From contig JAUYKA010000033.1 in NCBI GenBank assembly GCA_030698495.1, positions 7,840 through 71,839 on the forward strand: a stretch of 64,000 nt of DNA, in the 5' to 3' direction. This document shows positions 8,693 to 62,630 of the stretch, one piece after another. Both the position numbers and the translations under genes were made by a program. Source of the stretch: a bacterium. GTDB taxonomy: Bacteria > Patescibacteriota > Andersenbacteria > UBA10190. Position 1 is the stretch's first letter, and every line of letters begins with the position of its first letter. The notes below the pieces were generated by a model. It did not search any database. It saw only the letters and a list, made by a program, of their open reading frames with translations, and was not told the DNA's origin.

Positions 8693-9472
8693 TTACTTAT
8701 TGCTATATGTCCTTATCATATCTTGTGCGATTTTGATTTTTAAATTCTTATCTCTTTTATAGAATATGGAGCCTTTTGCTTGCTTTTCATCGCAATGCCT
8801 AACTTTTACCGCCCAGTTTTCGAAAAAAGCGATAGGAATGTTATTCTTAACAAATTCATTTGAAATAACATCCTCATAATTGCAATCATCTGTATACTTG
8901 GAAAAATTATAGATTCCATTGCTATGTGCAAAATCTAAAAACCTTTGATTGTGATAAACCAAAAAATGAGATGACACTCTATTAACGTCCCTAACATTTT
9001 TTTCTAGCGGACGACCAATATCTTCCAACTTCCACACCCAACAATCATAATCAATTACACTGGAAATTAAACATGTTTCTGGATGTCTATCAAAAAAAGC
9101 AGATATCTCCCCCAAGGCGTCATAATCATTTTTTTCCAAAACCGCAATAACATCACTTTCAATCTCTATCGTGTAGTCGCTTTTACCAGAAAGAGCATGA
9201 AAGTGAGCATTATTAGACGGATCTCCAGGACAAATAAAGTTCTTGTTCGCTTTATTTCGTATCCTTACTTCGTCAATATTGAGTTTGTCACGAAAGTGAA
9301 TAATTTGTTCTATAGAGCTGTCGGTTGCTCCGTCAACTTGCGCAATGACTTCGTATTTACAGCTTGAATTTTTAGTTAATGCATCTACGCTGATAGGCAA
9401 TGTTATATTCCAAAGATCAAGCTCATTTGCCACAATGGATATTATTTGAAATTTTGGTCGGTCATTCAACAT
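8693..9472 (-). CDS. GT2-like glycosyltransferase (GT-A fold), last gene of the AT-rich operon.
   Basis: N-terminal IISIV...EVIAQVDGATDSS resembles the DxD/DGSTD region of family-2 glycosyltransferases. Very low GC. Confidence 0.4.
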   Translation of the reverse strand: MLNDRPKFQIISIVANELDLWNITLPISVDALTKNSSCKYEVIAQVDGATDSSIEQIIHFRDKLNIDEVRIRNKANKNFICPGDPSNNAHFHALSGKSDYTIEIESDVIAVLEKNDYDALGEISAFFDRHPETCLISSVIDYDCWVWKLEDIGRPLEKNVRDVNRVSSHFLVYHNQRFLDFAHSNGIYNFSKYTDDCNYEDVISNEFVKNNIPIAFFENWAVKVRHCDEKQAKGSIFYKRDKNLKIKIAQDMIRTYSNK

Positions 9473-11400
9473 ACCGAAGAATCATAAACAGCATAATCTC
9501 CATCTTCGCTAAATAAGCTGGAGCTACTGTTTTTAATCCACAACGGAAAATATCTTTTATTTCTTTCACCAAAAACTACCGCTCGAGAAGGCATTGGATT
9601 GACTGTTGATTCTTCCCCATTTTTATTAAATGCAAGAATTCCAATAATCTCAGGCACAAGCAAACAAGATCTGTTTTTATCATTGATTGTTATATTAAAC
9701 CCGATTTCTTGCGTTCCTACTGGAATGGGGAATTCTAAGACATTTTCTTCTTTCACTATGCCAGTTGTATCGTGAGAAGCAGTGTCTTTAAATGGCACTT
9801 CTATAAAACCAGTATTTTGTTTGTGCTCATGAACAACTAAATCTCTTTTCTTTCTAAGCGTATATTTTTCATACTCAGCAACGTCTTTATAGAAACAAAT
9901 CTCATCCCACTGATATTTATGTTTGACACTCTTATCGATAAGAATATTTATTTCATCCAAATGATCACCCACAACTCTCACTCTCAACTTATGATTGCTA
10001 AAAGAAAGAAAGGTTGTATGTTCCTTCATCGTTACACAAACTTCTTCTTGTCCAATGCGGCCTATGATCCTTGGGGAAAACGCACCCCTCCCTTGGGGCG
10101 GGACTGCATTAATCGCACCGGAAAAATATGGATTTCCCAATTTTTCTAAAACACCTCTTCTTTTTTCTATTAGCTCAGATATAAAGTAAGACTGTAGTTT
10201 AATAAAATGTTTTATGAGTTGGCATTTTACACCGTCCGGTTTTTTAACAGTCTTATTCACAAGCCACCCCTGATAATAACAACCGCCGCCGCATAAATAT
10301 CTTGCCCAACATTTATTACATGGCTTCCTATTCTCAACGGTTTGGTTCATAAAGAGATCCTTTGCGGCCTCACTCACGCCTTCTTCTATACTGCCAATAT
10401 CTTGCCCTTTAGCCCCTACGAAATGAGCGCAAGGATACAATTTCCCATCCCAATCAACATATAATCCTGATTTTCCACAATTGCATCGATATCTCAATAT
10501 CGATCTATTTAATATTCTATAAAAATATCTGAAAAAATAATCCTCTGGGTTTATTGCTTTTAGATACTGCGCAAGCTCATCGTCAGAACTAGCGAGTAGA
10601 AAATCTATGAATTGGCTATATGCTTGTTTAAACTTCGGCAGATTTTCCTCATTCAAAGCAAAGCTTTCTTCGTGGCCGCTATTGACCGGCTTCATGTAAA
10701 TCGATGATTTTATGCCTAGATCAAAAATGTGTTTAAAATTTTTAGAGATATCCAATGTCTCCGCTGTTATAACAGAACAAGCGCCAATGTCGATTTTTTC
10801 CCTTATGGCAAATTGAATTAATTGAGCCAGATCATTATAAGTGCCCTTTTTATTCTTATATCTTCTAAATTTATCATGGTCTTCTTGCACTCCGTCGATA
10901 CTTATGTCCATTGGACTGCCTAAACGTTTTACCATTTTATCGGGAGTAAATATCAAACCGTTAGACATATTAGCTCCCACCCAAACAGTCTTATTGAATT
11001 TTTTACATAGCTTTTTAATGTGGTCTTTTAAGATTTTGTGATACCCCTCAGCGATAAAAGGTTCTCCGGCAACACCAAAATCAATTCTGGCAAACCTCTG
11101 ATCTTCCGATAAGCTCTTAAAAAACAAATCGATTGCCTCTATCGCGGTTCTCATGGTCATCATTTTCGTATTATTTTCCAGTTCTCGTTTCCGAAATACA
11201 CAATACCGACAATCCAAATTACATGACATTGATATACATAATTGAAGCTGTGGGCTTATTTCCTTGAATTCTTTTTTCCACTTAGAAGGCTTACTGTTGG
11301 GTAAATCTGGAATGCTTACACCAAAATCATCTATGCAAAAAACAGAGGATGTGTTTTCATCTATTGCGAATTTTTTATTCTTATGTGTAAATTTTTTCAT
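9466..11400 (-). CDS. Radical SAM enzyme with a SPASM domain and a roughly 230-aa C-terminal extension of unknown function (644 aa).
   Basis: CNLDCRYC (Cx3Cx2C) near the N-terminus. SPASM-type Cys clusters CNCGKSG...C and CNKCWARYLCGGGCYYQG. Confidence 0.8.
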   Translation of the reverse strand: MKKFTHKNKKFAIDENTSSVFCIDDFGVSIPDLPNSKPSKWKKEFKEISPQLQLCISMSCNLDCRYCVFRKRELENNTKMMTMRTAIEAIDLFFKSLSEDQRFARIDFGVAGEPFIAEGYHKILKDHIKKLCKKFNKTVWVGANMSNGLIFTPDKMVKRLGSPMDISIDGVQEDHDKFRRYKNKKGTYNDLAQLIQFAIREKIDIGACSVITAETLDISKNFKHIFDLGIKSSIYMKPVNSGHEESFALNEENLPKFKQAYSQFIDFLLASSDDELAQYLKAINPEDYFFRYFYRILNRSILRYRCNCGKSGLYVDWDGKLYPCAHFVGAKGQDIGSIEEGVSEAAKDLFMNQTVENRKPCNKCWARYLCGGGCYYQGWLVNKTVKKPDGVKCQLIKHFIKLQSYFISELIEKRRGVLEKLGNPYFSGAINAVPPQGRGAFSPRIIGRIGQEEVCVTMKEHTTFLSFSNHKLRVRVVGDHLDEINILIDKSVKHKYQWDEICFYKDVAEYEKYTLRKKRDLVVHEHKQNTGFIEVPFKDTASHDTTGIVKEENVLEFPIPVGTQEIGFNITINDKNRSCLLVPEIIGILAFNKNGEESTVNPMPSRAVVFGERNKRYFPLWIKNSSSSLFSEDGDYAVYDSSVC

Positions 11401-11407
11401 GTCTTAT

Positions 11408-13084
11408 TCAAATTACCTTATATCTAGTTTTTATATCCTGCAAAGCGCCGGCTAGTAATTCATATTTTCCTAATCCCTCAATCTTACTATTTCTAATACA
11501 AATTAAGTCATTTATAATACTCTTCAGTTCCAACCTCGCTTTGTCTGGACATATTTTTAGTTTCTCAAAAACCTCCGGAGAGGCAACCTCTTGGTTATTC
11601 ATAAGCGCTATCCTAGTAACTAGAAACCTCGCCTCTTCAAATAATGATTTAAAAGTTGATATTGTTCTTGTTTTCTCATATTCTGTTTGTTGCTTCCATA
11701 ACGCATCCTTGTAAACTATCCTTTTGTATCTCTCTAAATACTCAAGAAACAATTTGTTATTTCCAGAAACCAATCTTAACTCAAATACCTCAAAAAGATC
11801 CCTTGATTCACCATTTACTACTACGTCTTTTTCTACAGGCCTACCATGAGTCCCCTCGGATCTAACTCCGAGATACGCAAGTAATTCACATGTCAAATTT
11901 TCAATTGGAATAACTGGATAAGTTTTATTGCCTTTAAACATAACAATTTCAAAATCAAGATCGCTTTCCTTGGTTAAAACAAATTCTCCGTATGACCCCC
12001 TGGCTATAATATTTATCTCTGCATAATCTATGTCGACTAACCCACATACTGCTTTAACGATGCTTCTTAGAATGTCGTCATAAATTTCAGCGCTACAGTC
12101 TTTCTGTGCTTCTTTAATTGTATTGATCATTTTCTTATACCCCGCTTCATCGCCCAGAGCGACGATTAGGCTTGCTAAATGAAACTTTGCCTGGTTTCCT
12201 TTTTTAACAGCCATGATTTTTTTCGTTATGCCTAATAATACCCTGAGATCGTCAATACTATTTTGTCTTTTTTTGTACATCAGTAGCGTCCACGTGAAGG
12301 ATATTCTTGCGGAAACTAATTCATCTACAAAATGTCCAACCTCGAATGGTCTCGAATCTTTGTTGATTAATGGTTTTTCTGCATCAATAGTCAATTGGTC
12401 AAAATAATTGAAAAATTTATTTCTGTCTTGATATGCCATGGTTTTCCATCCAACCTTTTCAACTCTGTCCATCTTTCTAGCTTTATTGGAAAAACAATAC
12501 TTGCGTTCAAGAAGTTTGACATATTCCTCGACCAAATCTTCTTCAAAGGATTGAAATAAATTGATTTTCAAAAATAATAGATACCTTCGATCTATACCCG
12601 AATCTTCAACCTTAAATAATTTCTCAAAATCTATTAAGAAGTATGTTTTATTCAAGTAAAACATATTACGTAGCGCTAACCCCCTCCAAAGATAACCGTT
12701 TTGAAGAAAATGATTGTTTATACGAACCACATCTTCAAAAAGCAACTCCTTGTTCATCAAAGGATTCTGGTTCAATGGAAGCCCTAAATCCTCAAAAATA
12801 AAGAAACTATCTGCCCTGCTAATAGGCATTAAGACCTTAGCATCTGTTACATTATTCTTACGCAATAGCTGGTCTGCTAACTTTAGATTTTCTATTTCTT
12901 TCTGTTTGCATTTTTTAATGATATAACTTTTGTTTTTAATCCTAGAATATATTTTAATTACATCATTTTTAAATGGATTAACATTTTCTAGTTCAAGAAC
13001 TCGTAAATCATTTTCTCTTGTTATAATGCCTTTCCTTTTTAATAACTTGATAATTGCACTGTTCATAAAATTTAACTCCAGCAA
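11408..13084 (-). CDS. Two-domain protein: N-terminal aminoglycoside/choline-kinase-like fold (IDFE Brenner-type motif, non-canonical catalytic loop) followed by a Pol-beta-type nucleotidyltransferase domain (GS-x10-DLDFE).
   Basis: Motifs YLWRGLALRNMFY...FLIDFEKLF and ARGSYGEFVLTKESDLDFEIV read from the translation. Confidence 0.5.
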   Translation of the reverse strand: MLELNFMNSAIIKLLKRKGIITRENDLRVLELENVNPFKNDVIKIYSRIKNKSYIIKKCKQKEIENLKLADQLLRKNNVTDAKVLMPISRADSFFIFEDLGLPLNQNPLMNKELLFEDVVRINNHFLQNGYLWRGLALRNMFYLNKTYFLIDFEKLFKVEDSGIDRRYLLFLKINLFQSFEEDLVEEYVKLLERKYCFSNKARKMDRVEKVGWKTMAYQDRNKFFNYFDQLTIDAEKPLINKDSRPFEVGHFVDELVSARISFTWTLLMYKKRQNSIDDLRVLLGITKKIMAVKKGNQAKFHLASLIVALGDEAGYKKMINTIKEAQKDCSAEIYDDILRSIVKAVCGLVDIDYAEINIIARGSYGEFVLTKESDLDFEIVMFKGNKTYPVIPIENLTCELLAYLGVRSEGTHGRPVEKDVVVNGESRDLFEVFELRLVSGNNKLFLEYLERYKRIVYKDALWKQQTEYEKTRTISTFKSLFEEARFLVTRIALMNNQEVASPEVFEKLKICPDKARLELKSIINDLICIRNSKIEGLGKYELLAGALQDIKTRYKVI

Positions 13085-14733
13085 GCTGGACTATTACCCC
13101 CGGAAGTGCAAACTTCCGTTTCTTTGGCCCCACCTAAGTTTATCAGACTGTCTATCTCATTATTATACTTATTGATAGTCTCCTCTATGGCTATAGCCAA
13201 TAGTTCATTAGACTGCCACAGACTTTCCTTATCAGTTGAAGGATTACCAATAGTTGTACCAATCACTGTATATGTAATTTTTTCATCATTAGTAATTTTC
13301 CGATTAAAATCATTCAACTTAAACTCATCCATGCAGACATTACCTGCTTTATACAATCGGTCAGAAACCATACTTGTATACTTGCTCACCAAAGAACTGA
13401 TTGCGTTTTTGTCCTTAACGCGCTTAATATCATCTAGTCTTCTTTTGGGAAATACCACAAAAGAAATTCTATAAAAATCTAGATCGTTAAAAACTATAAC
13501 ATTTTCATTTTTCATTAAAATTTGATACCAATAATTTGCTAAATACTGCCTCCGTTCAATTAACTTACCGATAGCTCTCAATCCGATCCCCTTGATTGTT
13601 AACCAGAGCTTCAGAGACTCAAAGCCTCTTGACCCCATGAATGGCGTAGCTAAACCTAAATCCAAATACTCTTTAGCATTAACCTTATCGGGGTACCTAG
13701 AAAAAACATTTGTGGAATTAGGATTTTTAAACAAAACATAACTGCTAGAGTAGGGAATAAACAATGACTTGTGAGGATCTAACGACACTGAGTCTGCGTT
13801 CTCTATGCCTTTTAATAGGTGTTTGTATTTTTCTGAAAACAAAAAACTACCGCCATGGCATGCATCAACGTGCAACCAGACATTATACCGCTGACACATG
13901 CGAGAGATAGCTTCCAGATCATCTAAACCGCTAGTCCTACAATTTCCCGCGACCGCCACGACAAAAAATGGGATTTGATCTTTTGCAGAATTCTCAATAG
14001 CGTTTTTAATATTCAGCACCGAGGATGTGTAATTTTTTCCTGGCTCAGCCCAGATAATCGAATTAGATCCTAGTCCCAACCATGAGCAAGCGCTTTTATA
14101 GGAATAATGCTCAATACCCCTAGTCATTACGATGACTGGTTTTTGCTCAACAGAATGAATGCCCCGTTCCTTGATTGAAGGAAATCTATTATTTAACGCA
14201 GTCAGTAAGGCCACATAGTTAGAAAGATTGCCCCCCGTAGTCCACATACCACCAACCTTAGAAAGGGAATTAATCTCTGGCAGTGGTATAGTTTGATATC
14301 CTATTAATTCTCTTAACCAGTTTATAAGCTGGATTTCTATTATTGTTCCTATAGGAGCACTCCGATCAAAAGCTATCTGATTTTGATTTAAAAACTGAGA
14401 ATATATTGCTCCACCAATTGCATATTTCGAATTTCCGCCATCGGGAAAAGCAAGATATTTCTTATCAGCTTGAAGAATCGAGTATTCACCGATCATGTCT
14501 AATAATTTATCCAGATCATTGTCTGAAATTGAATTCTGCGGAATATGTTCGTCAAGTAAAAAGCGCAGCTCTTTGGGGCTCATATAATTAAACACTTTAT
14601 TTTTTCGTAATTTACCCGAATAGAAGTCCAGGCCTTTCCGAATAAACTTATGAAAAAAATCTTCCTCCAATAATGCTTTTTCGGAAGGATCTAGCAAGTA
14701 TTGTGAAACAAATTGGGAGTCTATTTTTCTCAT
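13072..14733 (-). CDS. Group II PLP-dependent amino-acid decarboxylase.
   Basis: MWTTGGNLSNYVAL, HVDACHGGSF and SLDPHKSLF (PLP-lysine) motifs. 553 aa. Confidence 0.75.
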   Translation of the reverse strand: MRKIDSQFVSQYLLDPSEKALLEEDFFHKFIRKGLDFYSGKLRKNKVFNYMSPKELRFLLDEHIPQNSISDNDLDKLLDMIGEYSILQADKKYLAFPDGGNSKYAIGGAIYSQFLNQNQIAFDRSAPIGTIIEIQLINWLRELIGYQTIPLPEINSLSKVGGMWTTGGNLSNYVALLTALNNRFPSIKERGIHSVEQKPVIVMTRGIEHYSYKSACSWLGLGSNSIIWAEPGKNYTSSVLNIKNAIENSAKDQIPFFVVAVAGNCRTSGLDDLEAISRMCQRYNVWLHVDACHGGSFLFSEKYKHLLKGIENADSVSLDPHKSLFIPYSSSYVLFKNPNSTNVFSRYPDKVNAKEYLDLGLATPFMGSRGFESLKLWLTIKGIGLRAIGKLIERRQYLANYWYQILMKNENVIVFNDLDFYRISFVVFPKRRLDDIKRVKDKNAISSLVSKYTSMVSDRLYKAGNVCMDEFKLNDFNRKITNDEKITYTVIGTTIGNPSTDKESLWQSNELLAIAIEETINKYNNEIDSLINLGGAKETEVCTSGGNSPACWS

Positions 14734-14815
14734 AATAATTCATCGAAACTGTATTGACGTTGGACTTACACAAAAAACAGTTTGCACGTAAACATAGCCA
14801 ATGATTCAATATATG

Positions 14816-15913
14816 TCAATAATATGTTTCGCCAAAAGAGATGTTATCCCCCTCTATCGATATTAAGGCTGCCCTTTGCGGATCAATAATTGGCGTTGTC
14901 ATATACATGTCTCGACCATTATATCGACCACTAGTTATCCTAGCAGCCATACGACAACCACCCTCGCATAACATCAAGGCGTTGCACGTTCGACATTCTT
15001 CTGGAAGCATTTTTGGCGATGCCCAAGATTTCATCCTCAGCCAAGTACTCAAAAATTTATCTGGTAAAACGTTGCCAAAGACAACGTCAGAATGGACGCA
15101 TGGTCTCATCGTTCCCGCTGATGAAACAACACAAGACGATACTGCGGCTGAGCAAATTCTGTTTCCGAAGAAACGAACAAACTCTGCTTCTTCGCGCTCA
15201 CCAAAAAGACACCTAGCGACCGGTTCAAGAACATCAACTTTGAGGGACAACTCCTTGTCTATGCGCATCAACTCTCTTAAGCAACGCTTACACTCTACCC
15301 CCGAAAGACAAAGGGGTATATTCGCTCTACATGACGGTAACATGGGGCCTGCACAGAAAGTGCTAACCCCGAGACGCTTTAAGGCCAGAGCTGTATCAAA
15401 TATGAAGTCTAGATTCATTTTTGATACGACCATATTAACGGCAACAGAAAGGTTAACCGCCAATAGACTTTCTATGCCCTTGATAGTTCGGCCGTAATTA
15501 CCACCAGCCCCGGCAATAGTGTTGTGTATGTCCTCTGGACCAAGCACTGAAACCAAGACATGCTTTAAGCCTTGCTCCTTTAGCGCTCGCGCATCTTTGC
15601 ATTGAATTAGAGCCGCATTTGTGTTAAGTCCCGTTTCAATTCCATATGACGTTGCAAGAGCAATGAGCTTAAGCAAGATTTCTTTTCGAAGCATCGGTTC
15701 GCCACCCGTAAACGTTACTAAGCCCACTTTAGCATCTCGCAACTGATCAATGACCATGCTATAGTCATTCATCCCTAATTCGTCTTGGTCTTTTACGAGA
15801 CTATGCCTCCAATAGTTGTAGCAGTGTCTGCATTCTTGATTGCACTGCGAAGTCAATTCTATTTGTACATCTAATGGCGCTGAGAGCCTTTCCATTGCTT
15901 GTCCTCCAAACAA
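14816..15913 (-). CDS. Radical SAM/SPASM-domain maturase-like enzyme (365 aa), first gene of the operon.
   Basis: CNQECRHC radical-SAM motif. C-terminal CSAAVSSC...C and CRTCNALMLCEGGCRMAA SPASM clusters. Confidence 0.8.
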   Translation of the reverse strand: MFGGQAMERLSAPLDVQIELTSQCNQECRHCYNYWRHSLVKDQDELGMNDYSMVIDQLRDAKVGLVTFTGGEPMLRKEILLKLIALATSYGIETGLNTNAALIQCKDARALKEQGLKHVLVSVLGPEDIHNTIAGAGGNYGRTIKGIESLLAVNLSVAVNMVVSKMNLDFIFDTALALKRLGVSTFCAGPMLPSCRANIPLCLSGVECKRCLRELMRIDKELSLKVDVLEPVARCLFGEREEAEFVRFFGNRICSAAVSSCVVSSAGTMRPCVHSDVVFGNVLPDKFLSTWLRMKSWASPKMLPEECRTCNALMLCEGGCRMAARITSGRYNGRDMYMTTPIIDPQRAALISIEGDNISFGETYY

Positions 15914-16163: not shown

Positions 16164-16309
16164 GGACTACTTTTAAAAACAAGATCGAACTCGAGCTGCT
16201 GCTGTTTGACTAAATGTGACTGTTTGCAGATAATGGAAAGTGCTGTAAACTCTAGTGTTTGGGGTTATTGTTGACTGTTCTTCACAACAACTGATAAAGG
16301 GGTACGGCA

Positions 16310-17380
16310 ATGAGCTGCACAGCTGAAGCGACCGAGGAGGTTGGCCATCACGAGACAAAACGAGACTATTTGCTGGTGATGGACCTGCCGGAGATGGTGC
16401 ACGGTCTGCGCCTGACCGGGCTGAACGTTCCGCCGCGAAACCATGACATCTTTGCCAAGATCAAGGAAGATCTGGCGAAGCTGTTCGGTGTAGTGATGCC
16501 CAAGTACGTCGGTGAAAGCGAGATCACCCTGAAGGTGATCGATATGCAAGAGCTGTCTGATCAGATACTGGCCAAGGCGGTGCAGATGGTCGACAGCATG
16601 AAGCAAGGCTACATTGTGAGCACTTGCATGGATATCGCAAGCATTGTGCTTCACGGCAAAGTCTTCGAAGCTAACCGGCTGATCGACAATACTGGCTCGG
16701 TATTGGGTATCGGACCTAGGCCGGGGCACTATAGCCTGCGGAAGCAGGTGGAAAGCGTGATCACGGACGCGGCTGGTCAACCCATTATCCTGGTGGAAGA
16801 CGGGTTGTTTACCGGGACGACGATGTACGAGGTGATCCGCGAGTTTCAGGCGCGCGGTGCGGAAGTCGAAGCGGTGGTGCTTGGCTTCGCGTTTCCGAAA
16901 GCGAAAGATAAGCTGGCGTCGCTTGCCATGGCACCGAGTGTTCATACGGTCGAGACGGTTCATAATCCGCTCGACTGGGTGCCCGATCACGACTTCTTCC
17001 CGTTCGTGCCCAATTGCGGCCGGGTACTGGGAACTCGTATCAATGGCCAGGTTCATCCGATTTACTCGCATCTGGGGTTCTCGTACAGCGTGCCCTATCT
17101 GTACGGATTCTGCCCCATGGGCGATTGGATCGGCCTGTCGTTGTCGGAGGCACAAGCGAGGGAGCTGACTTGGAACATCCTTCATCTGGACTGCGAGCTG
17201 TTCAGGGTCATCGATGCGATGAACGGTGGAAAAGGCTTCAAGCTCCATGAGTTGGGCAACGCCAGGCCACGCGTTTCCATCCCCTACCGCGTCAATCAGA
17301 AGCATCTGCCGGAGAACGAGAACGATATGACTATCGGCAGGCATCTGGCGGAAGAGACGATGCGCGCCAGTCCGCACTAG
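16310..17380 (+). CDS. Phosphoribosyltransferase-domain protein with a C-terminal extension.
   Basis: PRPP-binding motif ILVEDGLFTGTT. GC-rich. The antisense ORF 16265..17389 is judged an artefact. Confidence 0.55.
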   Translation: MSCTAEATEEVGHHETKRDYLLVMDLPEMVHGLRLTGLNVPPRNHDIFAKIKEDLAKLFGVVMPKYVGESEITLKVIDMQELSDQILAKAVQMVDSMKQGYIVSTCMDIASIVLHGKVFEANRLIDNTGSVLGIGPRPGHYSLRKQVESVITDAAGQPIILVEDGLFTGTTMYEVIREFQARGAEVEAVVLGFAFPKAKDKLASLAMAPSVHTVETVHNPLDWVPDHDFFPFVPNCGRVLGTRINGQVHPIYSHLGFSYSVPYLYGFCPMGDWIGLSLSEAQARELTWNILHLDCELFRVIDAMNGGKGFKLHELGNARPRVSIPYRVNQKHLPENENDMTIGRHLAEETMRASPH

Positions 17381-17389
17381 CGACAACAC

Positions 17390-22361: not shown

Positions 22362-22883
22362 TTAGCGGTAAACGGCTATCAGTTGCTGGATTATCATGTC
22401 TTCCCATGTGGTGATTTGGTTTGTTTTGAAGTCAAACCAGACACGCAGGAAGTCGGCGCGGGTGATGGCGCGCATTTTGCCTATTTCCGGGTCCTGTAAA
22501 TAAATTTTCTGATCATCGAGACCGACAACGACCGAATAGTGGCCGTCGGGTACTTCGGAATCGCCGTAGTCGGAGCGGCCGCGAGTGAACCAATTAACGA
22601 TAACCGGCACTTTTTTGTCGAGCCAGTGTTGAATGTCGTCAAACGAAGCCTCGTTCTGAATGGTTACTGTGAAGCCGTAAGTCTCGGCGGTTTGTCTGAT
22701 AGCCGCGTCATCAATGCCTATCTCCGGATCGCGGCCGCAGAGCCGGGCTAATTCTTCTTCGCTTTTGGCTACGCCATAGTAGTCTAATACCATCTTTAAA
22801 CTGGCCGGACCGCAGTAACTACCATGCAGGGTTTCCTGAAAGGGTTTGACTGTAAGTAGTGGTGTTTTGAGACTCTTTGCCAT
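22362..22883 (-). CDS. Peptidase C39-like (papain-fold) domain protein.
   Basis: HGSYCGPASLKMVLDYYG active-site Cys region, and a downstream DGHYSVVVG His. Confidence 0.6.
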   Translation of the reverse strand: MAKSLKTPLLTVKPFQETLHGSYCGPASLKMVLDYYGVAKSEEELARLCGRDPEIGIDDAAIRQTAETYGFTVTIQNEASFDDIQHWLDKKVPVIVNWFTRGRSDYGDSEVPDGHYSVVVGLDDQKIYLQDPEIGKMRAITRADFLRVWFDFKTNQITTWEDMIIQQLIAVYR

Positions 22884-25812: not shown

Positions 25813-26397
25813 ATGAATAAAGGAGACTATATTTCAGCAATATTACGGGCCAAGGGGACGGTTTTTACGGCTAGTGAGATAATGCTGATATGGAACGAGA
25901 CAGGAAGTGCCGCGGCCAGAGCAAGGATAAATTATTATGCTAGGAACGGCGATATTTACCGAATTCGACGCGGTATTTATGCAAAAGATAAGGATTATAA
26001 CCGCCGCGAGCTGGCTACTAAAGTTTATATTCCCTCTTATGTTAGTTTCGAGACGGTGCTGGCAGAAGCGGGTATAATTTCTCAATTTTACAAGCAGATT
26101 TTTGTTGCTTCATATTTGTCGCGTGAATTGGAAATTGGTGGACAAAAATATGCATACAAGCATATTAAAGACGAAATTCTTACTAATCCGTCCGGTATTG
26201 TTAATGACAGCACTTTTTCGACAGCTTCCGCAGAACGGGCTTTTTTGGATGTACTTTATTTAAATGTGGATTATCATTTTGATAACCTGCGCCCGTTGAA
26301 TTGGGAAAGGGTGTTTGAATTGTTGCCTATTTATGGCGGCATACGCCGCATGGAAGAAGTAGTGAGAAAAATTTACAAATCGTATCAGACGGAATAA
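25813..26397 (+). CDS. AbiEi-like antitoxin/transcriptional regulator (type IV TA / abortive infection).
   Basis: N-terminal wHTH-like region. Immediately upstream, same strand, of a DUF1814/AbiEii nucleotidyltransferase. Confidence 0.5.
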   Translation: MNKGDYISAILRAKGTVFTASEIMLIWNETGSAAARARINYYARNGDIYRIRRGIYAKDKDYNRRELATKVYIPSYVSFETVLAEAGIISQFYKQIFVASYLSRELEIGGQKYAYKHIKDEILTNPSGIVNDSTFSTASAERAFLDVLYLNVDYHFDNLRPLNWERVFELLPIYGGIRRMEEVVRKIYKSYQTE

Positions 26398-26401
26398 AAA
26401 T

Positions 26402-27103
26402 ATGTCTCTTGATATTGCCATTCATAGAAGCGTGTTAATAAAGATACTGAAGGATATTTATACGGATTCCTCTTTGGGCCCCAGTTTGGGTTTTAAGGGG
26501 GGTACGGCGGTATATTTGTTTTATAATCTAAATCGCTTTTCGGTTGATTTGGATTTTGATTTGCTGACTGTTGATGAAGAAGGTTATGTTTTTGAGCGTG
26601 TGAAGAAAATTCTAAAAAAGTACGGGTTGGTAAAAGATGCGGTGAAAAAAAGATATAACTTGTTTTTTATGATGGCTTACGATGATAAAGTCCCCGGAGC
26701 ACAGAATATAAAAGTGGAGATTAACCGACGGGATTTCGGCTCAAAGTATGAGTCAAAAAGTTATTTGGGGATTCCGGTAAAGGTAATGGTGCGGGAAGAT
26801 ATGGCGGCACACAAGTTGGTGGCGATGCTGGAGCGCATTGGCCGGACTAATCGTGATATTTATGATGTTTTTTTCTTTTTGCAAAACGATTGGCCGATAA
26901 ATAAATCAATAGTGGAGGCTCGCACCGGGCTTGGATGGAATGAATATCTGAAAAAGGTGATTGATAAATTAGAGAAGTTGGCGAATCGCAACATTTTGGC
27001 CGGCATGGGCGAATTACTGGACGAAAAGCAAAAAGCATGGGTTAAGGAGAATTTAAAAAGAGAGGTCGTTTTTCTATTGAAGTTGAAGCTGGAGAAGGAG
27101 TAA
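26402..27103 (+). CDS. AbiEii/AbiGii-family nucleotidyltransferase toxin (DUF1814).
   Basis: GFKGGTAVYLFYNLNRFSVDLDFD motif. Confidence 0.65.
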   Translation: MSLDIAIHRSVLIKILKDIYTDSSLGPSLGFKGGTAVYLFYNLNRFSVDLDFDLLTVDEEGYVFERVKKILKKYGLVKDAVKKRYNLFFMMAYDDKVPGAQNIKVEINRRDFGSKYESKSYLGIPVKVMVREDMAAHKLVAMLERIGRTNRDIYDVFFFLQNDWPINKSIVEARTGLGWNEYLKKVIDKLEKLANRNILAGMGELLDEKQKAWVKENLKREVVFLLKLKLEKE

Positions 27104-27215: not shown

Positions 27216-27229
27216 GCGGAGGAAGAGCG

Positions 27230-29086
27230 ATGAAACGCTTCTTGGCGATTGTGGTTTTGGGTGTTTTGCTTTCCGTTGACGTCGCGCAGGCACAATACAT
27301 CGGACGAATCGCGGAGAATCCCGTTACCGGGCATACCTATTACAGCATCAGAGATGCCGACGGGTGGAGTGGCGTGTATTGGCCGGTGGCCGATTACTAC
27401 GCTCGGAACTTGGGCGGACACTTGGCAACCATCAACGACGCGGCCGAAAACGCTTGGATTACGCGTGCTTTCCCGGGTGAGCCATATTTGTGGATTGGGT
27501 TGAACGATGTGGAGCAAGAAGGTCGTTTTGCGTGGTCGAGCGGTCAATCAGTGACGTATACAAACTGGGCGCCGGGAGAGCCGAATAACTATGGGGGTAA
27601 CGAGGATTATGTCCGGATGCGCAATTACACAGGCGCGCAGTCGAAGTGGAACGACTTGGGTTTGACCACACAAGATGATCCGAATTGGCCGATTTGGGGG
27701 CTGGTGGAGGTGCCAACGCAACCGTCAAACACACGAGTAATCATGACGGCGTTGAATCCGGCCAATTGGCACACTTATAAGCTGATTGGATCCGACGGCG
27801 GTTCGGGCGGTGTGAGTTGGTACAAAGCAGAAATGGCGGCGAAGCAGTTAGGCGGACATTTGGTGACGATTAACAACCAGAAAGAGAATGATTGGGTTGT
27901 GTCTAAGTTCGGCTCGCACAGTAATTTGTGGATAGGTTTAAGCGACCCGGACCATGACGGACAATTTACGTGGTCGAGCGGTGCGCCGGTGACATACACC
28001 AACTGGGAGCCGGGGGAGCCGAATAACTATTTCGACAACGAGGGATTCGCGCATGTGGATGCCAGAGTTACCGGCGGCGTTTGGAACGACACCAGTGGCG
28101 ACTTGTCGTACATGCTGGATCATAACGCGTTCGGCGTGGTGGAAGTGGCTTATGACGCGCCGCAGTTTCTGTTTCGGGATTCGGGAGATGATATGCCGTG
28201 GATCGATCATGTCGGGTTCTACCCTGGCGGAAATCAGAAGGTGTGGGAGGCGCATTTATGGGGTTATGCTACTGGTGTATATGTTGATCCCGATACTGAT
28301 CAGGGTGTTTCTGTTGATCGCGCATCTGGTGTGCAACAGCAGCATACATTGGCTTCGTTCTATGAAAATCGACTGACTTCGTCTGGCGGAAGTAGTCCTA
28401 CGGTCGCTGAACATTCGACGAGCGTTGCTATTTCACAAAGTGATGCGGATCAGATCAATGACTGGATCATTGAAAATGCACAGGGGGCGGGATATATTAT
28501 TGGTTCCGCTAATTTACAGAAGGGCTATTATCTCAACAGATATTCGTGCGTTGGTCTACTGGAGCGAGCTGCAGAAGAAGTTGGTGTCCACAGTGGCCAA
28601 GGTTATATACCCAACAGTATGGAAGGGCTTTCTATAAGAGACAAGAACGTCTTCAGCCCCAGTCTGCTGTATTACTGCCTTGTGTATCCGGAAGTGTGGG
28701 ATGAAAACTATCTTGTCGGGCAAGTTGACCCTGTGGATTTTATTCTGACAGATCCGCTAGGACGACGCCTCGGTCATGTTCAGGGAACTGTTTTTGATGA
28801 GATTCCTAATGCTGATTTGGTGGTAGAGGATGAGGATTACGAGTGGTTTCTGATTCCGGAACGTGTGCCGGGGGTTTACAGGGTGGATTTTTTCGGACTT
28901 GGCGAGGAGTACGCAGCACAGTTTGACTTGATGGATCCGGTACACGGTCTGACGACATGGCAGTACTCCGGGTACCTGGCCGAAGGTGAGTTGTTCAGTG
29001 TGTCGCTCGTGCCGGAGCCGACAACATTTGTTCTCTTCGTGCTTGGTGCTTTGAGCTTGTTGGCTTGGCGTCGAAGAAGGCGCTGA
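27230..29086 (+). CDS. Secreted protein with two tandem C-type lectin-like domains and a C-terminal PEP-CTERM sorting signal.
   Basis: Signal peptide MKRFLAIVVLGVLLSVDVAQA. Two WIGL...EPN...WND-containing CTLDs (GEPNNYGGNEDYV and GEPNNYFDNEGFAHV). C-terminus VPEPTTFVLFVLGALSLLAWRRRRR. Confidence 0.75.
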   Translation: MKRFLAIVVLGVLLSVDVAQAQYIGRIAENPVTGHTYYSIRDADGWSGVYWPVADYYARNLGGHLATINDAAENAWITRAFPGEPYLWIGLNDVEQEGRFAWSSGQSVTYTNWAPGEPNNYGGNEDYVRMRNYTGAQSKWNDLGLTTQDDPNWPIWGLVEVPTQPSNTRVIMTALNPANWHTYKLIGSDGGSGGVSWYKAEMAAKQLGGHLVTINNQKENDWVVSKFGSHSNLWIGLSDPDHDGQFTWSSGAPVTYTNWEPGEPNNYFDNEGFAHVDARVTGGVWNDTSGDLSYMLDHNAFGVVEVAYDAPQFLFRDSGDDMPWIDHVGFYPGGNQKVWEAHLWGYATGVYVDPDTDQGVSVDRASGVQQQHTLASFYENRLTSSGGSSPTVAEHSTSVAISQSDADQINDWIIENAQGAGYIIGSANLQKGYYLNRYSCVGLLERAAEEVGVHSGQGYIPNSMEGLSIRDKNVFSPSLLYYCLVYPEVWDENYLVGQVDPVDFILTDPLGRRLGHVQGTVFDEIPNADLVVEDEDYEWFLIPERVPGVYRVDFFGLGEEYAAQFDLMDPVHGLTTWQYSGYLAEGELFSVSLVPEPTTFVLFVLGALSLLAWRRRRR

Positions 29087-29107
29087 TGTTAGCTTTGCGT
29101 GTTCGTT

Positions 29108-29141
29108 CCCCTAGGTAGTTATGCCTAGGGGATTTTTTTGT
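29108..29141 (+). terminator. Terminator after the lectin gene.
   Basis: cccctagg-tagttatg-cctagggg followed by a T7 run. Confidence 0.75.
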
Positions 29142-29764
29142 TTGCTGGTATTATTAAGGCATTAGCGCAATTTAATATAGTTATGAAGTACTATCTGGGT
29201 TTGTTTCTTTCTTTTTTGTTGATGCTTGGTTTTCCTAGCTTGGCATTTGCTGATGTTGGTATCCCAATGATTGTTTATACGTGGCCGGCAATGATTCTAG
29301 CTTTAATTCCTGTTGTTCTGATAGAAGCTTATGTTATATCTGATTTATTACGTGTTGGCTTTAAAAAAACGGTTATTCCTTCGAGTGTTGCCAATATAGT
29401 TACAACAGTTGTGGGTATTCCTCTGTCTTGGGGCTTGCTGTTTGTTTTTGGATTGTTAATAATGCTTTTTGGCTCCTCGTTTGATATTTCAAGTATTAGG
29501 CAGGGTATTGTATCGGTCTTAGTGATAGCATCTTGGGTTGCGCCAATGGGCGGGCAAACTTTTTGGTTTACTTTCTATTCTTTAGTCACTTCTTTTGTCG
29601 TTGCCTTCTTGGTTTCCGTGCTAATGGAATATTGGATCTTGAGGTTGTTTTTCAGGGGGGCTGATAAAAAACTAGTTAAGAAGACTGTTTGGATAGCAAA
29701 TGCTGCGTCGTACGCCTTGTTGATTGTTTCAAGCTTGATACTCTTTTACTTTTTTCTGGATTAA
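29138..29764 (+). CDS. Polytopic membrane protein of unknown function.
   Basis: About 6 hydrophobic segments; no motif recognised. Confidence 0.45.
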   Translation: MFAGIIKALAQFNIVMKYYLGLFLSFLLMLGFPSLAFADVGIPMIVYTWPAMILALIPVVLIEAYVISDLLRVGFKKTVIPSSVANIVTTVVGIPLSWGLLFVFGLLIMLFGSSFDISSIRQGIVSVLVIASWVAPMGGQTFWFTFYSLVTSFVVAFLVSVLMEYWILRLFFRGADKKLVKKTVWIANAASYALLIVSSLILFYFFLD

Positions 29765-57135: not shown

Positions 57136-58170
57136 ATGTCCGGTAATAATTTTAGGGTTGAGATTGAACGGGGCGGCGTGCTTTTGTGGGTTAATCAAGA
57201 CGACCGATATGAAGCTGACGGTATTTTTAATCCGGCCGTGGCGGGTGATTATTTACTGTATCGTGCCGCCGGATCTGGTAATTATTCTCGGATAATGGCG
57301 GCGCGTTTGTCTTATGATAAGCGGCGGGGAGACGTGAACGCCGACCGTTTGCAGCGGATAATATTGGAACCCATGACGGCATATGAAAAAATGAGTGAGG
57401 AGAACGGAGGTGTGGAGGATCCGCGAGTGACCCGATTGGCTGACGGAAAATACGTAATGCTGTATGTTGGCTATGGGTATCAAAAAGAAACCGATGCTCA
57501 AGAATCAATGATAGCGGCAGCAATTTCAGAAAATGGATTAATATGGGAACGCTTGGGGCGGATTATGTTTGAGCCGCTGCACTGGCAGGGACACATGATT
57601 GATTTGAATAGAGTACCCAACAAAGACGCGGTGCTATTCAGTGAAAAAATTGGCGGCCGTTATGCTCTTTACCACCGCCCGATGTTTTCCGCGGAGAAGG
57701 CGAAAGTAACCGGTGTGCCAAGACGCGCCATCTGGTATGCAGAGGCAGAGCAATTAACCGGACCCTGGAGTAACCATAGGATGGTGGCCATACCGAAGTA
57801 TGACTGGGAGATTAGCGGCATTGGCAGCGGTGTTCCGCCGATTCGCATGGGTAACACTTGGCTGAATATTTATCACGGGTTCATCTATCAAAGAAAACAT
57901 AAGCACTACTGTGCCGGCGCCTTTGTTACTTCAGCTGATAAACCATACCAGATCACCTGGAGGCAGGCAGAGCCAGTTCTTGAACCAATTGTGTATGACG
58001 AGAAGAAGCACAGAAGCAAACACATTGTGTTTCCTACAGCTGTTTGGTCCGGCGCGGGAGAGAGACCGGTGATTATATGGGGCTGCGAAGATAGCAGTAT
58101 TATGTGGGGCTGGTTGAATCTGCGATCGGCACAGGCAGGACCGTCTGCATCTTTGCGGCTGCCTGCTTGA
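57136..58170 (+). CDS. GH130-like glycosidase/phosphorylase (DUF377 beta-propeller).
   Basis: GVEDPRV motif and overall length. Confidence 0.55.
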   Translation: MSGNNFRVEIERGGVLLWVNQDDRYEADGIFNPAVAGDYLLYRAAGSGNYSRIMAARLSYDKRRGDVNADRLQRIILEPMTAYEKMSEENGGVEDPRVTRLADGKYVMLYVGYGYQKETDAQESMIAAAISENGLIWERLGRIMFEPLHWQGHMIDLNRVPNKDAVLFSEKIGGRYALYHRPMFSAEKAKVTGVPRRAIWYAEAEQLTGPWSNHRMVAIPKYDWEISGIGSGVPPIRMGNTWLNIYHGFIYQRKHKHYCAGAFVTSADKPYQITWRQAEPVLEPIVYDEKKHRSKHIVFPTAVWSGAGERPVIIWGCEDSSIMWGWLNLRSAQAGPSASLRLPA

Positions 58171-59318: not shown

Positions 59319-60422
59319 ATGAACATTGTTCTTATTGTAGCAGAGCACGGATATAGTTTCGTTAATCAGGCTGAAGCCTTAATGAAGGGTTTAAAGCAGA
59401 TTGGCGTTAATTCTAGCCTGGTAAAAGTCAGCGGCGGCCATGTTGATGCCAGTCAGCTTCAGGAAGCCCGGCCTGATATTGTAATAAGCGTCGGCGATTG
59501 GCATGATTATGCTCCTTTAGTAGAAGCACCAATGGTAGCAGGATTTGTGGTAGTGCCTTGGGTAGTTGCCGATGAAGCAAGTGATTTATGGATCGAACAG
59601 TACAATAAATTGCCTCTTATTTTAGTACCCAGCCAGCACGTTAAAGAACAATTAACCAGCAATAAAGTTACGGATAAACTTATCGAGGTTTTGCCCGAGG
59701 CGGTGGACGATGATTTATGGAAGCCATGGGAGGAAAAGCGCCTGGTATCTTTTTTGGAATTGCTTTCCGTGCAAAATGAGATGATAAGGGCTGATTTGCC
59801 CAAGCGGTTTGATTTAATGCAGGCACGGCAAGAAGGCGTGCCGATTATTTTTACGACCGGCGGTTACGCTACGGCTAAAGGCGCACAAGAGGTTATGCGC
59901 GCGCTGGCTACATTGGAAGAAGATTTGCCGTGGATTTATGTTATTAAGACGTGGCCGGCAATAGAAAGTTTGAAGTATACCCAAGAGGAGTTAACTCTGG
60001 CGGAAGAGCTTGGTCTGGCTGACCGGATGCGATATATTATCGGAGAATTTTCCCGGGATTTCATGGTGGGATTGATGAACGCATGTGATATGTACGCTTC
60101 GCCATCGCGGCACGAAGGATTTGGCTTGCCCTTAGTGGAGGCTCAAATGTGCGGCAAGCCGGTAGTAACGGTAGCCGGTACGGCTACTCAAGAGACGGTG
60201 CGCGACGGAGTGACCGGATTCCTGGCGACGAGAGATACCAGTGCAAAAGATATGCGCGCCGATGTGTCCAGTTTGGCGGGCCACCTGCGAGAACTTTTGA
60301 CTAATACCGACCGACGCGCGGAACTGGGGCGCCAGGCATTGAAACTGGCGCGCGCTACCTATCGGCCGGCGGCCATTACGCGACGTCTTTTGAATACGCT
60401 GGCTAAGCACAAACTGCCATGA
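59319..60422 (+). CDS. GT4 (group 1) glycosyltransferase.
   Basis: SPSRHEGFGLPLVEAQMCGKPVV motif. Confidence 0.7.
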   Translation: MNIVLIVAEHGYSFVNQAEALMKGLKQIGVNSSLVKVSGGHVDASQLQEARPDIVISVGDWHDYAPLVEAPMVAGFVVVPWVVADEASDLWIEQYNKLPLILVPSQHVKEQLTSNKVTDKLIEVLPEAVDDDLWKPWEEKRLVSFLELLSVQNEMIRADLPKRFDLMQARQEGVPIIFTTGGYATAKGAQEVMRALATLEEDLPWIYVIKTWPAIESLKYTQEELTLAEELGLADRMRYIIGEFSRDFMVGLMNACDMYASPSRHEGFGLPLVEAQMCGKPVVTVAGTATQETVRDGVTGFLATRDTSAKDMRADVSSLAGHLRELLTNTDRRAELGRQALKLARATYRPAAITRRLLNTLAKHKLP

Positions 60423-61660
60423 AAAATTCATACGCTGAAATACTGGAGTACCAGCAGGAACCATTAAATGTTATTTATATTGCTTCTTATATACCGCGCA
60501 AGTGCGGTATTGCTACTTATACCAAAGACTTAACGAACGCCATTAATTTGCTGAATTCGAGGTCAATGGCGGAAATTCTGGTGATGCATCGCGCCGATAG
60601 TAAGACCGATTATCCCTGGGAGGCCAAATATAAGGTTGATGATACTAACTTGGCTTCTTTTTTAGGAGCGGCAGACTATATCAACAAATCGCACGCCAAC
60701 CTGGTTTCGTTGCAGCATGAATTTGGCCTGTATGGCGGCAATGGCGGCGAATATATTGTACCTTTGGTTGAGTCTCTAAAAGTACCGCTGGTGACGACTT
60801 TTCACACGGTTGTGGCTGATCCGGACAGTAACTACGGCATGGTGCTGCGCCGGATTGCCGCAAGGTCGGAGGCTATTGTCGTAATGATGAATCAACCGGC
60901 TGACCGTCTGGTTAAATACTACGGCGTGCCGCGGAAAAAAATAGTAGTTATCCCCCATGGAGTACCCGATCTGCCTTTTAACAATTCAAGGGCCAGCAAG
61001 AGCAAGAGACGGCTGACCGACCGGTTGGTGTTGGGTAATATTAATCTTTTGTCGCCGGGAAAAGGGATTGAGTACGCGCTGGAAGCGGTGGCGGAAATAT
61101 CCCGACAGTATCCGGAAGTGCTTTATTTGGTTATCGGCCAGACACACCCCGATCTGCTAAAAGCGGAGGGAGAAAAATACCGAAATTATCTTAAAAGGCG
61201 AGTACGGGAATTGGATATTCGTAATAACGTGCGGTTTATTAATGAGTATTTGTCACTTAACGATCTCATAGACTGGCTGAAGACTATTGATATATACGTT
61301 ACACCGTATTTAGATCCGCAGCAGGTTACTTCCGGAGCTTTGGCATATGCCATTGGCGCCGGTAAAGCATGCGTGTCCACATCATATATATATGCCACTG
61401 AAGTTTTAGCCGACGGCCGCGGTGTGTTAGTGCCATTTCGTGATCCGGGCACGATTGCCAAAGCAGTGATTGGGTTACAGAAAAATAATACGCGCCGCAA
61501 AGATATGCAAAAGAAGGCTTATGAGTACGGTCGATTAATGACATGGCCAAACGTGGCCCAGAGCCATTTGCAGTTATTCAGGAGTGTTTTGCACCGGCAT
61601 GCTTGTCAACAACCTGCTGATATACACGAAGATAATTTTGTGCCATCCGTGCAGCCGTAA
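60419..61660 (+). CDS. GT4 (group 1) glycosyltransferase.
   Basis: GT-B C-terminal domain features. ATGA overlap with the upstream GT. Confidence 0.6.
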   Translation: MKNSYAEILEYQQEPLNVIYIASYIPRKCGIATYTKDLTNAINLLNSRSMAEILVMHRADSKTDYPWEAKYKVDDTNLASFLGAADYINKSHANLVSLQHEFGLYGGNGGEYIVPLVESLKVPLVTTFHTVVADPDSNYGMVLRRIAARSEAIVVMMNQPADRLVKYYGVPRKKIVVIPHGVPDLPFNNSRASKSKRRLTDRLVLGNINLLSPGKGIEYALEAVAEISRQYPEVLYLVIGQTHPDLLKAEGEKYRNYLKRRVRELDIRNNVRFINEYLSLNDLIDWLKTIDIYVTPYLDPQQVTSGALAYAIGAGKACVSTSYIYATEVLADGRGVLVPFRDPGTIAKAVIGLQKNNTRRKDMQKKAYEYGRLMTWPNVAQSHLQLFRSVLHRHACQQPADIHEDNFVPSVQP

Positions 61661-62630
61661 ATTTTTCTTCCACATGCTGGCGGCAGCGGGCGCGGTCAAT
61701 GGACGGTAAATGAGATACGGCTTCAATCGCCTCGGCAACATTGGTTACGAGAAAACCGGTTTGGCCGGAGATAATAATTTCCGGCATACTGCCGTGGTTC
61801 ATTGCGATAACGGGTGTGCCGCAAGCCATGGCTTCCACTACCGATAATCCAAACGGTTCGTTAAAGTTGATGGGGTGCAATAAAGCAGCGGCACCGCCGA
61901 GTAAGCGGTTACGTTCGGTCGGACCGACGTTGCCCACATATTTCACCTGATTATTATCAACGTGCGGGGCTATTTTTGAATCGAAGTATTTATCATCATA
62001 AACGCGTCCGGCCATAATAAGCCGGCGTTTGGCCGATCGGGCGATATTAATAGCTTCCGCCGCACCTTTGTCGTTATCAATTCTGGCAAAGAAAAGAAGA
62101 TAATCATCCGGCTGGTCCTGAAAGGTAAACTGCGCGAGGTCAATGCCGTGATGGACGGTGGCAATGTAATCAAGGTCGGGACGGCGGTCGGCTTGGCTGA
62201 TAGCCGCGTAGTACACCCGTTGGTTGTATTTCCTATACACCGGGAGAATGTCGGGTGAAGATATGCCGTGAATGGTGGTTAATACCGGCGTGTTAATTAA
62301 TCGGGAATAGGTTAGCGGCAGGAAATCAAAGTTATTGTGAATCACGTCAAATTCAGCCGCGTGTTCAAAGGCTTCCGAGATGTGCAGGCATTCCCATACC
62401 TTGGCGTTCATTTTGGCGTCTTCGCCATAGCCGTGCGGCGCTACCGCCTGCAAGCGGGCGGAGGTGAGCGAGTCACCGGTAGCAAAAAGGGTGACATCGG
62501 CGCCTTGGCGCACCAATTCTTCGGTTAATACGGAGACAACTTGTTCCCACGGCCCATAGTTGCGGGGCGGGGTACGCCAGGCAATGGGTGAGAGCATGGC
62601 GATGCGCAAGGGTGAAGGGGAATTAGACAT
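61578..62630 (-). CDS. GT4 (group 1) glycosyltransferase.
   Basis: NEPFGLSVVEAMACGTPVIA...GQTGFLV (E-x7-E). Confidence 0.7.
   Translation of the reverse strand: MSNSPSPLRIAMLSPIAWRTPPRNYGPWEQVVSVLTEELVRQGADVTLFATGDSLTSARLQAVAPHGYGEDAKMNAKVWECLHISEAFEHAAEFDVIHNNFDFLPLTYSRLINTPVLTTIHGISSPDILPVYRKYNQRVYYAAISQADRRPDLDYIATVHHGIDLAQFTFQDQPDDYLLFFARIDNDKGAAEAINIARSAKRRLIMAGRVYDDKYFDSKIAPHVDNNQVKYVGNVGPTERNRLLGGAAALLHPINFNEPFGLSVVEAMACGTPVIAMNHGSMPEIIISGQTGFLVTNVAEAIEAVSHLPSIDRARCRQHVEEKFTAARMAQNYLRVYQQVVDKHAGAKHS

Follow-up and report, generated by a model that had tools for sequence, protein, structure and literature searches.

A putative surface lectin of an Andersenbacteria genome with two disulfide-free C-type lectin domains, a conserved extracellular cassette and a PEP-CTERM tail

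C-type lectin domains (CTLDs) that carry the motif series EPN...E...WND coordinate Ca2+ in the characterised proteins and bind sugars with equatorial 3- and 4-hydroxyl groups such as mannose, N-acetylglucosamine, glucose and fucose. PEP-CTERM sorting signals have been described exclusively from bacteria that possess an outer membrane as well as genes for exopolysaccharide (EPS), mostly with several substrates in a genome, and they always co-occur with an EpsH-family exosortase having a conserved Cys/Arg/His triad (PMC1569441). Patescibacteria, or candidate phyla radiation (CPR) bacteria, are described as monoderm (PMC11665869). Here we report on a gene of this lineage that joins both elements in one protein. 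It is located at positions 27230–29086 (+) of a 64,000-nucleotide stretch (the window) of contig JAUYKA010000033.1 from an Andersenbacteria assembly (GCA_030698495.1), starts with ATG and encodes 618 residues; the identical protein is already deposited at NCBI as "lectin-like protein" of a Candidatus Andersenbacteria metagenome-assembled genome (MAG). A literature search for C-type lectins together with PEP-CTERM returned nothing relevant. We consider it reasonably probable that the product is a surface glycan-binding protein composed of two disulfide-free CTLDs on a conserved cassette, which was acquired horizontally and is held in the membrane.

The assignment of the lectin part is based on profile, structure-database and motif comparisons, which agree with the tandem canonical CTLDs on a secreted protein that a preliminary description of the locus had proposed. 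PF00059 (Lectin_C) matches in two stretches with a whole-protein E-value of 5.4e-29 and 101.5 bits (cut-off 22.6). A search against the PDB sequences returned only C-type lectin domains with E-values down to 3e-38 (DEC-205, PLA2R, mannose receptors, CD23, SP-D and mannose-binding protein, MBP), and the matched proteins include the sugar-binding carbohydrate-recognition domains (CRDs) of SP-D, MBP and mannose receptor CRD4. Neither the FGE-sulfatase family (PF03781) nor another CLec-type family was found at a Pfam E-value of 1 or below, where only Lectin_C and PEP-CTERM appear, and the FGE-sulfatase/DGR-type CLec fold considered earlier as an alternative does not apply. Domain 1 (residues ~26–159; 27305–27706, +) contains WIGL at residue 88, EPN at 117–119, E125 and WND at 140–142; domain 2 (residues ~171–305; 27740–28144, +; best Pfam stretch 195–289) contains WIGL at 234, EPN at 263–265, E271 and WND at 285–287, each motif thus being found twice, as had been described. 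The residue sets for Ca2+ site 2 and the sugar site are E117/N119/E125/N141/D142 and E263/N265/E271/N286/D287, respectively. In an alignment with what we take to be the rat MBP-A sequence, EPN, E193 and WND of the latter correspond to EPN, Glu(+8) and WND of both CTLDs. The two domains are 47% identical (64/137), which fits an internal duplication. On the basis of these residues we infer Ca2+-dependent sugar binding by both CTLDs.

The two domains deviate from their animal counterparts in their cysteine content. Conserved disulfides, formed by four cysteines and supplemented by a third, N-terminal pair in long-form CTLDs, are absent, as residues 1–439 contain no cysteine at all; the only cysteines of the entire 618-residue protein, C440 and C483, are both located outside the CTLDs. 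In the same alignment with the presumed MBP-A sequence, Tyr, Phe or Lys occupy the positions of its disulfide cysteines. The "paired Cys" and the animal-type long-form character ascribed to both domains in the preliminary description therefore have to be withdrawn, and the domains are better placed in a large clade of disulfide-free bacterial CTLDs. Of 8000 candidates scored in a homologue search, 952 proteins reached E≤0.001, and the best 120 were almost all bacterial or metagenomic, so that the view of such domains as uncommon in bacteria was overstated. The best identity to any homologue does not exceed 47%. The 118 best homologous proteins contain 273 CTLDs, of which 180 are devoid of cysteine, 73 have one and seven have four or more, and EPN is present in 201 and WND in 204; a Cys-free domain with EPN and WND is thus normal for the clade. 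The sole named animal match in the list, an Acropora mannose-receptor-like protein (P0016), has three to five cysteines per domain. Judged from their residue pattern, the CTLDs are of the disulfide-free bacterial type with a complete set of mannose-type Ca2+/sugar site residues, and this type is a known and fairly common one.

The earlier picture, in which an anchor directly complements the lectin domains, is correct in that both are present, but it overlooked ~290 conserved residues between them. This cassette (residues ~305–592) consists of a mixed α/β part (residues ~311–495; 28160–28714, +), supported by conservation, family size and an AlphaFold2 model, and a β-sandwich domain (residues ~496–590; 28715–28999, +), supported by invariant alignment columns and an all-β segment of the AlphaFold2 model and marked by the invariant motif DFILTDPLGRRLG (DFILTDPxGRRLG). 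No match to residues ~305–592 was obtained in Pfam or NCBIfam, nor with a profile derived from them against the PDB sequences, and the β-sandwich gave only weak Ig-like Foldseek matches. A word-based search detected 15 relatives of the cassette, whereas a hidden Markov model search of 1.84 billion cluster representatives detected 176 at E≤1e-30 and 288 at E≤1e-10, corresponding to a family of at least 176 clusters defined at 50% identity. Family members combine the cassette with dockerin (21/70), type IX secretion system (T9SS) tails, SLH, RTX, DUF11, Ig-like, FG-GAP and carbohydrate-binding module (CBM)-like modules and occasionally with Lectin_C; among the 16 closest members, 10 have a Pfam match to PEP-CTERM, and a motif scan finds the signal in 44 of 155. 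To judge by these relatives, the cassette is a widespread extracellular module.

The α/β part of the cassette, a domain of ~190 residues, was modelled alone by AlphaFold2 with high scores (predicted local distance difference test, pLDDT, 91.4; predicted template-modelling score, pTM, 0.89). Foldseek found no significant match for this model in the PDB (best E 1.8) and only sub-threshold ones among predicted viral structures (BFVD; best E 0.065, TM-scores 0.30–0.43), including a PPPDE-domain protein and hypovirus polyproteins. In 120 trimmed homologues of the domain E340, K431, G442, E445, E449 and E465 are invariant, and H327, Q369 and C440 are conserved to 94%, 96% and 78%, respectively; C440 stands where a helix begins, its substitutes in the remaining 22% being G, N, A, D or S, and H327 belongs to an HVG motif on an earlier strand. 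The invariant pattern of Glu, Lys and His suggests that the domain does something specific, perhaps catalysis or the binding of a ligand or metal.

Both ends of the protein carry targeting elements. Residues 1–21 (27230–27292, +), MKRFLAIVVLGVLLSVDVAQA, were recognized as a signal peptide with an AQA-Q cleavage-type site by inspection of the sequence, the hydrophobic segment beginning at residue 8; the N-terminal signal peptide of PEP-CTERM substrates is thereby present (MKRFLAIVVLGVLLSVDVAQA followed by Q). A Shine-Dalgarno-like GGAGGA (27218–27223, +), likewise read directly from the sequence, precedes the ATG at 27230 by six bases. The C-terminal residues 594–618 together with the stop codon (29009–29086, +) form the PEP-CTERM sorting signal in the order VPEP, hydrophobic helix and RRRRR, the C-terminus reading VPEPTTFVLFVLGALSLLAWRRRRR. 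The original call of this signal is upheld by PF07589 (residues 594–616, 25.0 bits, cut-off 20.7) and TIGR02595 (23.4 bits, cut-off 16).

The distribution of relatives provides an indication for the origin of the gene. P0136 is collinear with the protein reported here, comprising a signal peptide, one CTLD, the unclassified domain, the sandwich and PEP-CTERM (32% identity, 463 residues, E 3e-52), and P0135 has the same architecture. The cassette relatives with a named organism belong either to Cyanobacteria (Trichormus, Spirulina, Okeania, ESFC-1 and two MAGs) or to Planctomycetota (Pirellulales, Sedimentisphaerales), and none of them to Patescibacteria. Because all named relatives stem from these two phyla, the most economical reading would be that the architecture as a whole was acquired horizontally and the CTLD duplicated afterwards.

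A separate observation concerns the genomic surroundings of the cassette in Cyanobacteria. At four loci (L007, 2460–6050; L009, 7492–12735; L010, 7362–12644; L011, 7147–10575) the cassette PEP-CTERM protein is immediately followed by a very large protein of 1142–1760 residues encoded on the same strand. The N-termini of the large proteins are alike in pairs, namely L007 (MFISLFKQLFF...) with L011 (MFISLLKKLFS...) and L009 (MWKPLSLQNF...) with L010 (MIIRAIQFNL...), as are their C-termini (...EDAW[IV]A[RK]LG in L009/L010). The large downstream protein may be a conserved partner of the cassette protein at these loci.

Based on these data we propose the following scenario for a membrane-held surface lectin. 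The gene would have been gained horizontally with a single CTLD, which was then duplicated. The signal peptide would send the protein through the Sec system, and the hydrophobic C-terminal helix, its five arginines facing the cytoplasm, would hold it in the cytoplasmic membrane, irrespective of whether an exosortase cuts it. The β-sandwich, as a spacer, and the unclassified domain would be positioned nearer to the membrane, while the two CTLDs would project outward and bind sugars with equatorial 3- and 4-hydroxyl groups in a Ca2+-dependent manner. With an exosortase, cleavage of the tail would be followed by transfer of the protein to a surface polymer; without it, the tail would stay a plain membrane anchor. 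The protein would be displayed on the surface, and an episymbiotic adhesin role, i.e. attachment to a host or partner cell, is a plausible if purely conjectural extension. Several observations weigh against this scenario. The GC content of the lectin gene (0.52) lies inside the range of the neighbouring genes (0.37–0.56) and its third codon positions (GC3) are likewise no outlier, so that base composition is neutral on horizontal transfer; as, in addition, no homologue exceeds the above-mentioned 47% identity, the horizontal origin has to be argued from the taxonomic distribution. Moreover, the acidic and basic residues that are invariant in the ~190-residue domain look more like those of an active or ligand site than those of a passive stalk, and the term "adhesin" may be an incomplete description.

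The last point leads to the strongest rival explanation, a lectin-targeted enzyme. The ~190-residue domain would have hydrolase activity, e.g. as a permuted papain-like Cys/His amidase or as a Glu-dependent glycosidase, and the CTLDs would deliver it to a glycan-coated target such as the cell wall of a host. This proposal accounts for E340, K431, E445, E449 and E465 being invariant, and H327 and Q369 nearly so, across the 120 divergent homologues, and for the fusion of family members to dockerin, T9SS, SLH, RTX and CBM-like modules, as often found in secreted enzymes. A histidine on a strand followed by a cysteine at the start of a helix, the order adopted by H327 and C440, matches permuted papain-like folds, and the non-significant best BFVD matches include the PPPDE-domain protein. 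However, no peptidase or glycosidase profile matched any of the 86 family members scanned, the domain finds no partner in the PDB although permuted papain-like structures have been solved, all BFVD matches have E-values above 0.05 and TM-scores below 0.5, and C440 is substituted in more than a fifth of the homologues while the glutamates are invariant. A permuted NlpC/P60- or PPPDE-like identity of residues 311–495, having neither profile nor solved-structure support, was therefore kept only as a lead. Altogether, we regard the lectin-targeted enzyme as unlikely, but its residue pattern would make it a serious rival of, or complement to, the plain adhesin.

A second rival explanation concerns the fate of the PEP-CTERM tail. 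An exosortase encoded elsewhere in the genome would cleave it and the protein would be covalently joined to a surface polymer or to EPS. In favour of this possibility, the intact tail exceeds the curated threshold of both profiles, and the window contains glycosyltransferase and dTDP/GDP-sugar dehydratase-type genes, which make some surface polysaccharide synthesis plausible. However, an exosortase is found neither in the 64-kb window, where 30 open reading frames (ORFs) were scanned with Pfam and transmembrane segments were surveyed, nor in the 5.6 kb beyond its right end, which extends what had already been stated for the window. The proteins of the window with more than two predicted transmembrane segments are an MFS transporter, a UbiA prenyltransferase and the product of a 208-residue ORF discussed below (a 94-residue overlapping mechanical ORF aside). 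Only one of the 61 ORFs of the window, the lectin gene, encodes a PEP-CTERM-like tail, which likewise speaks against a working sorting system, as does the contrast between a presumably monoderm host and the outer-membrane/EPS bacteria from which PEP-CTERM is known (PMC1569441, PMC11665869). A full-text literature search retrieved no paper reporting an exosortase in CPR bacteria, both terms co-occurring only in a hot-spring virus study and the word exosortase being absent from the CPR papers listed. Covalent attachment is thus rather improbable. Since the half that bears the anchor has its relatives in Cyanobacteria or Planctomycetota and Patescibacteria are described as monoderm, the tail may be an inherited signal acting simply as a transmembrane anchor, and for a transferred gene in a monoderm host a plain membrane anchor seems more likely than cleavage by an exosortase.

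There is a slim chance that a bolder version of either proposal applies: either a monoderm CPR bacterium really processes PEP-CTERM by an unrecognised exosortase-like enzyme outside the diderms, or the ~190-residue domain is an enzyme of new fold guided by the lectin domains to the glycan coat of a host cell. In the latter case, the protein would serve an episymbiont in lectin-guided attack or feeding. Finally, a mis-binned or chimeric assembly, in which a gene of a diderm bacterium was placed on a CPR contig by artefact, could be invoked because the cassette relatives come exclusively from diderm phyla and the GC content along the window varies from 0.35 to 0.53, but it is highly improbable, as the identical protein occurs with the same neighbours (AbiEii, lectin, transmembrane protein, aminotransferase, ThiF) in one NCBI MAG, two independent Logan assemblies of sequence read archive data and a 79.6-kb contig, the same gene order in three independent assemblies arguing against a chimeric contig, the neighbouring genes carry the NCBI label Candidatus Andersenbacteria, and the GC skew is uniform across 16–64 kb.

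On its downstream side the lectin gene appears to be separated from its neighbour. A terminator-like hairpin with an 11-bp stem including 6 G-C pairs, followed by TTTTTTTGTT (T7), is located just 3' of the lectin gene (29107–29142, +); as the number of terminator-like sites in the region is not above that of shuffled sequences, the argument draws on the position and stem strength of this hairpin. The next ORF (29138–29764, +) encodes, from a TTG, 208 residues with about five transmembrane segments and without Cys or His. Because the TTG at 29138 falls inside the T tract of the hairpin, the true start is probably the ATG at 29183, as in the 193-residue NCBI call. The protein matches neither Pfam nor NCBIfam, in line with its earlier treatment as unassigned. 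It was rejected as an exosortase, since it offers no Cys or His for the Cys/Arg/His triad and no profile match, and as a partner of the lectin on account of the intervening hairpin, the GC difference (0.375 versus 0.519 for the lectin gene) and the neighbourhoods of its relatives: of ten relatives found, some in Actinomycetota MAGs, those from two other genomes have no lectin or PEP-CTERM gene nearby. In our judgement, this membrane protein does not belong to the lectin system.

Directly upstream of the lectin gene, an AbiEi-like antitoxin (194 residues) and an AbiEii nucleotidyltransferase toxin (233 residues) are encoded at 25813–27103 (+), and this adjacency recurs in the three independent assemblies. 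A C39-like peptidase is encoded at 22362–22883. Further away, two GH130 proteins (57136–58170 and 62654–63607) flank three GT4 glycosyltransferases (59319–62630). The GH130 family includes mannoside phosphorylases. Mannoside-related GH130/GT4 chemistry is hence encoded ~28 kb from a lectin with mannose-type EPN motifs, the relation being one of proximity only. A low-GC block at 8693–15913 (−) (0.35–0.37 versus a window median near 0.47) contains radical SAM/SPASM enzymes (9466–11400 and 14816–15913), a pyridoxal phosphate-dependent decarboxylase (13072–14733) and two ORFs without Pfam match (8693–9472 and 11408–13084), and may constitute a peptide-modification or small-molecule cluster. At 16265–17389, two long ORFs on opposite strands (374 residues, minus; 356 residues, plus; 53–56% GC) overlap almost completely, the plus-strand one showing a weak phosphoribosyltransferase match just under the cut-off.

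As a further member of a known and already annotated bacterial lectin-like class, the lectin protein is largely ordinary. It is raised above routine by its CPR host, the PEP-CTERM signal outside its usual context and the sizeable uncharacterised domain family without structural match. CPR bacteria are assumed to live in attachment to other cells, and type IV pili are the main factors so far described for it (PMC13293708). A surface lectin that has kept its mannose-type sugar site intact would provide a concrete and testable candidate for the recognition of host glycans. The extracellular cassette family with its at least 176 clusters shares a confidently modelled domain which has no Pfam entry and no significant fold match in the PDB or BFVD, and is worth curating. 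The PEP-CTERM tail in a monoderm lineage offers a small test case for the question whether sorting signals outlast horizontal transfer as plain membrane anchors.

Three groups of known systems can be compared with the protein. With the animal mannose-type CRDs of MBP-A, SP-D and mannose receptor CRD4 it has the PF00059 domain, the WIGL core, EPN, the Glu at +8 and WND in common; in contrast to them, it has neither the four conserved cysteines nor the additional pair found N-terminally in long-form CTLDs, has a loop between Glu(+8) and WND that is longer by 3–4 residues, and resides in a bacterium. A second group is the clade of bacterial or metagenomic "lectin-like proteins" (e.g. from Dolichospermum, Synechococcales, Pyrinomonadaceae and Planctomycetes; P0002–P0120), which show 35–47% identity over its CTLDs and likewise carry tandem arrays of mostly Cys-free domains with EPN and WND. 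Most proteins of this clade have RTX, dockerin, DUF4347 or other partners, unlike the protein described here, its named members include none from Patescibacteria, and only a few combine a CTLD with PEP-CTERM (P0047, P0093) or with the unclassified cassette (P0135, P0136). From the usual PEP-CTERM/exosortase substrates (TIGR02595; Haft et al. 2006, PMC1569441) it differs by its presumably monoderm CPR host and by being the single candidate in 64 kb in which no exosortase is seen. Nevertheless, one cyanobacterial PEP-CTERM protein, WP_127052317 of Trichormus variabilis, has the whole cassette of unclassified domain, sandwich and PEP-CTERM in common with the Andersenbacteria lectin.

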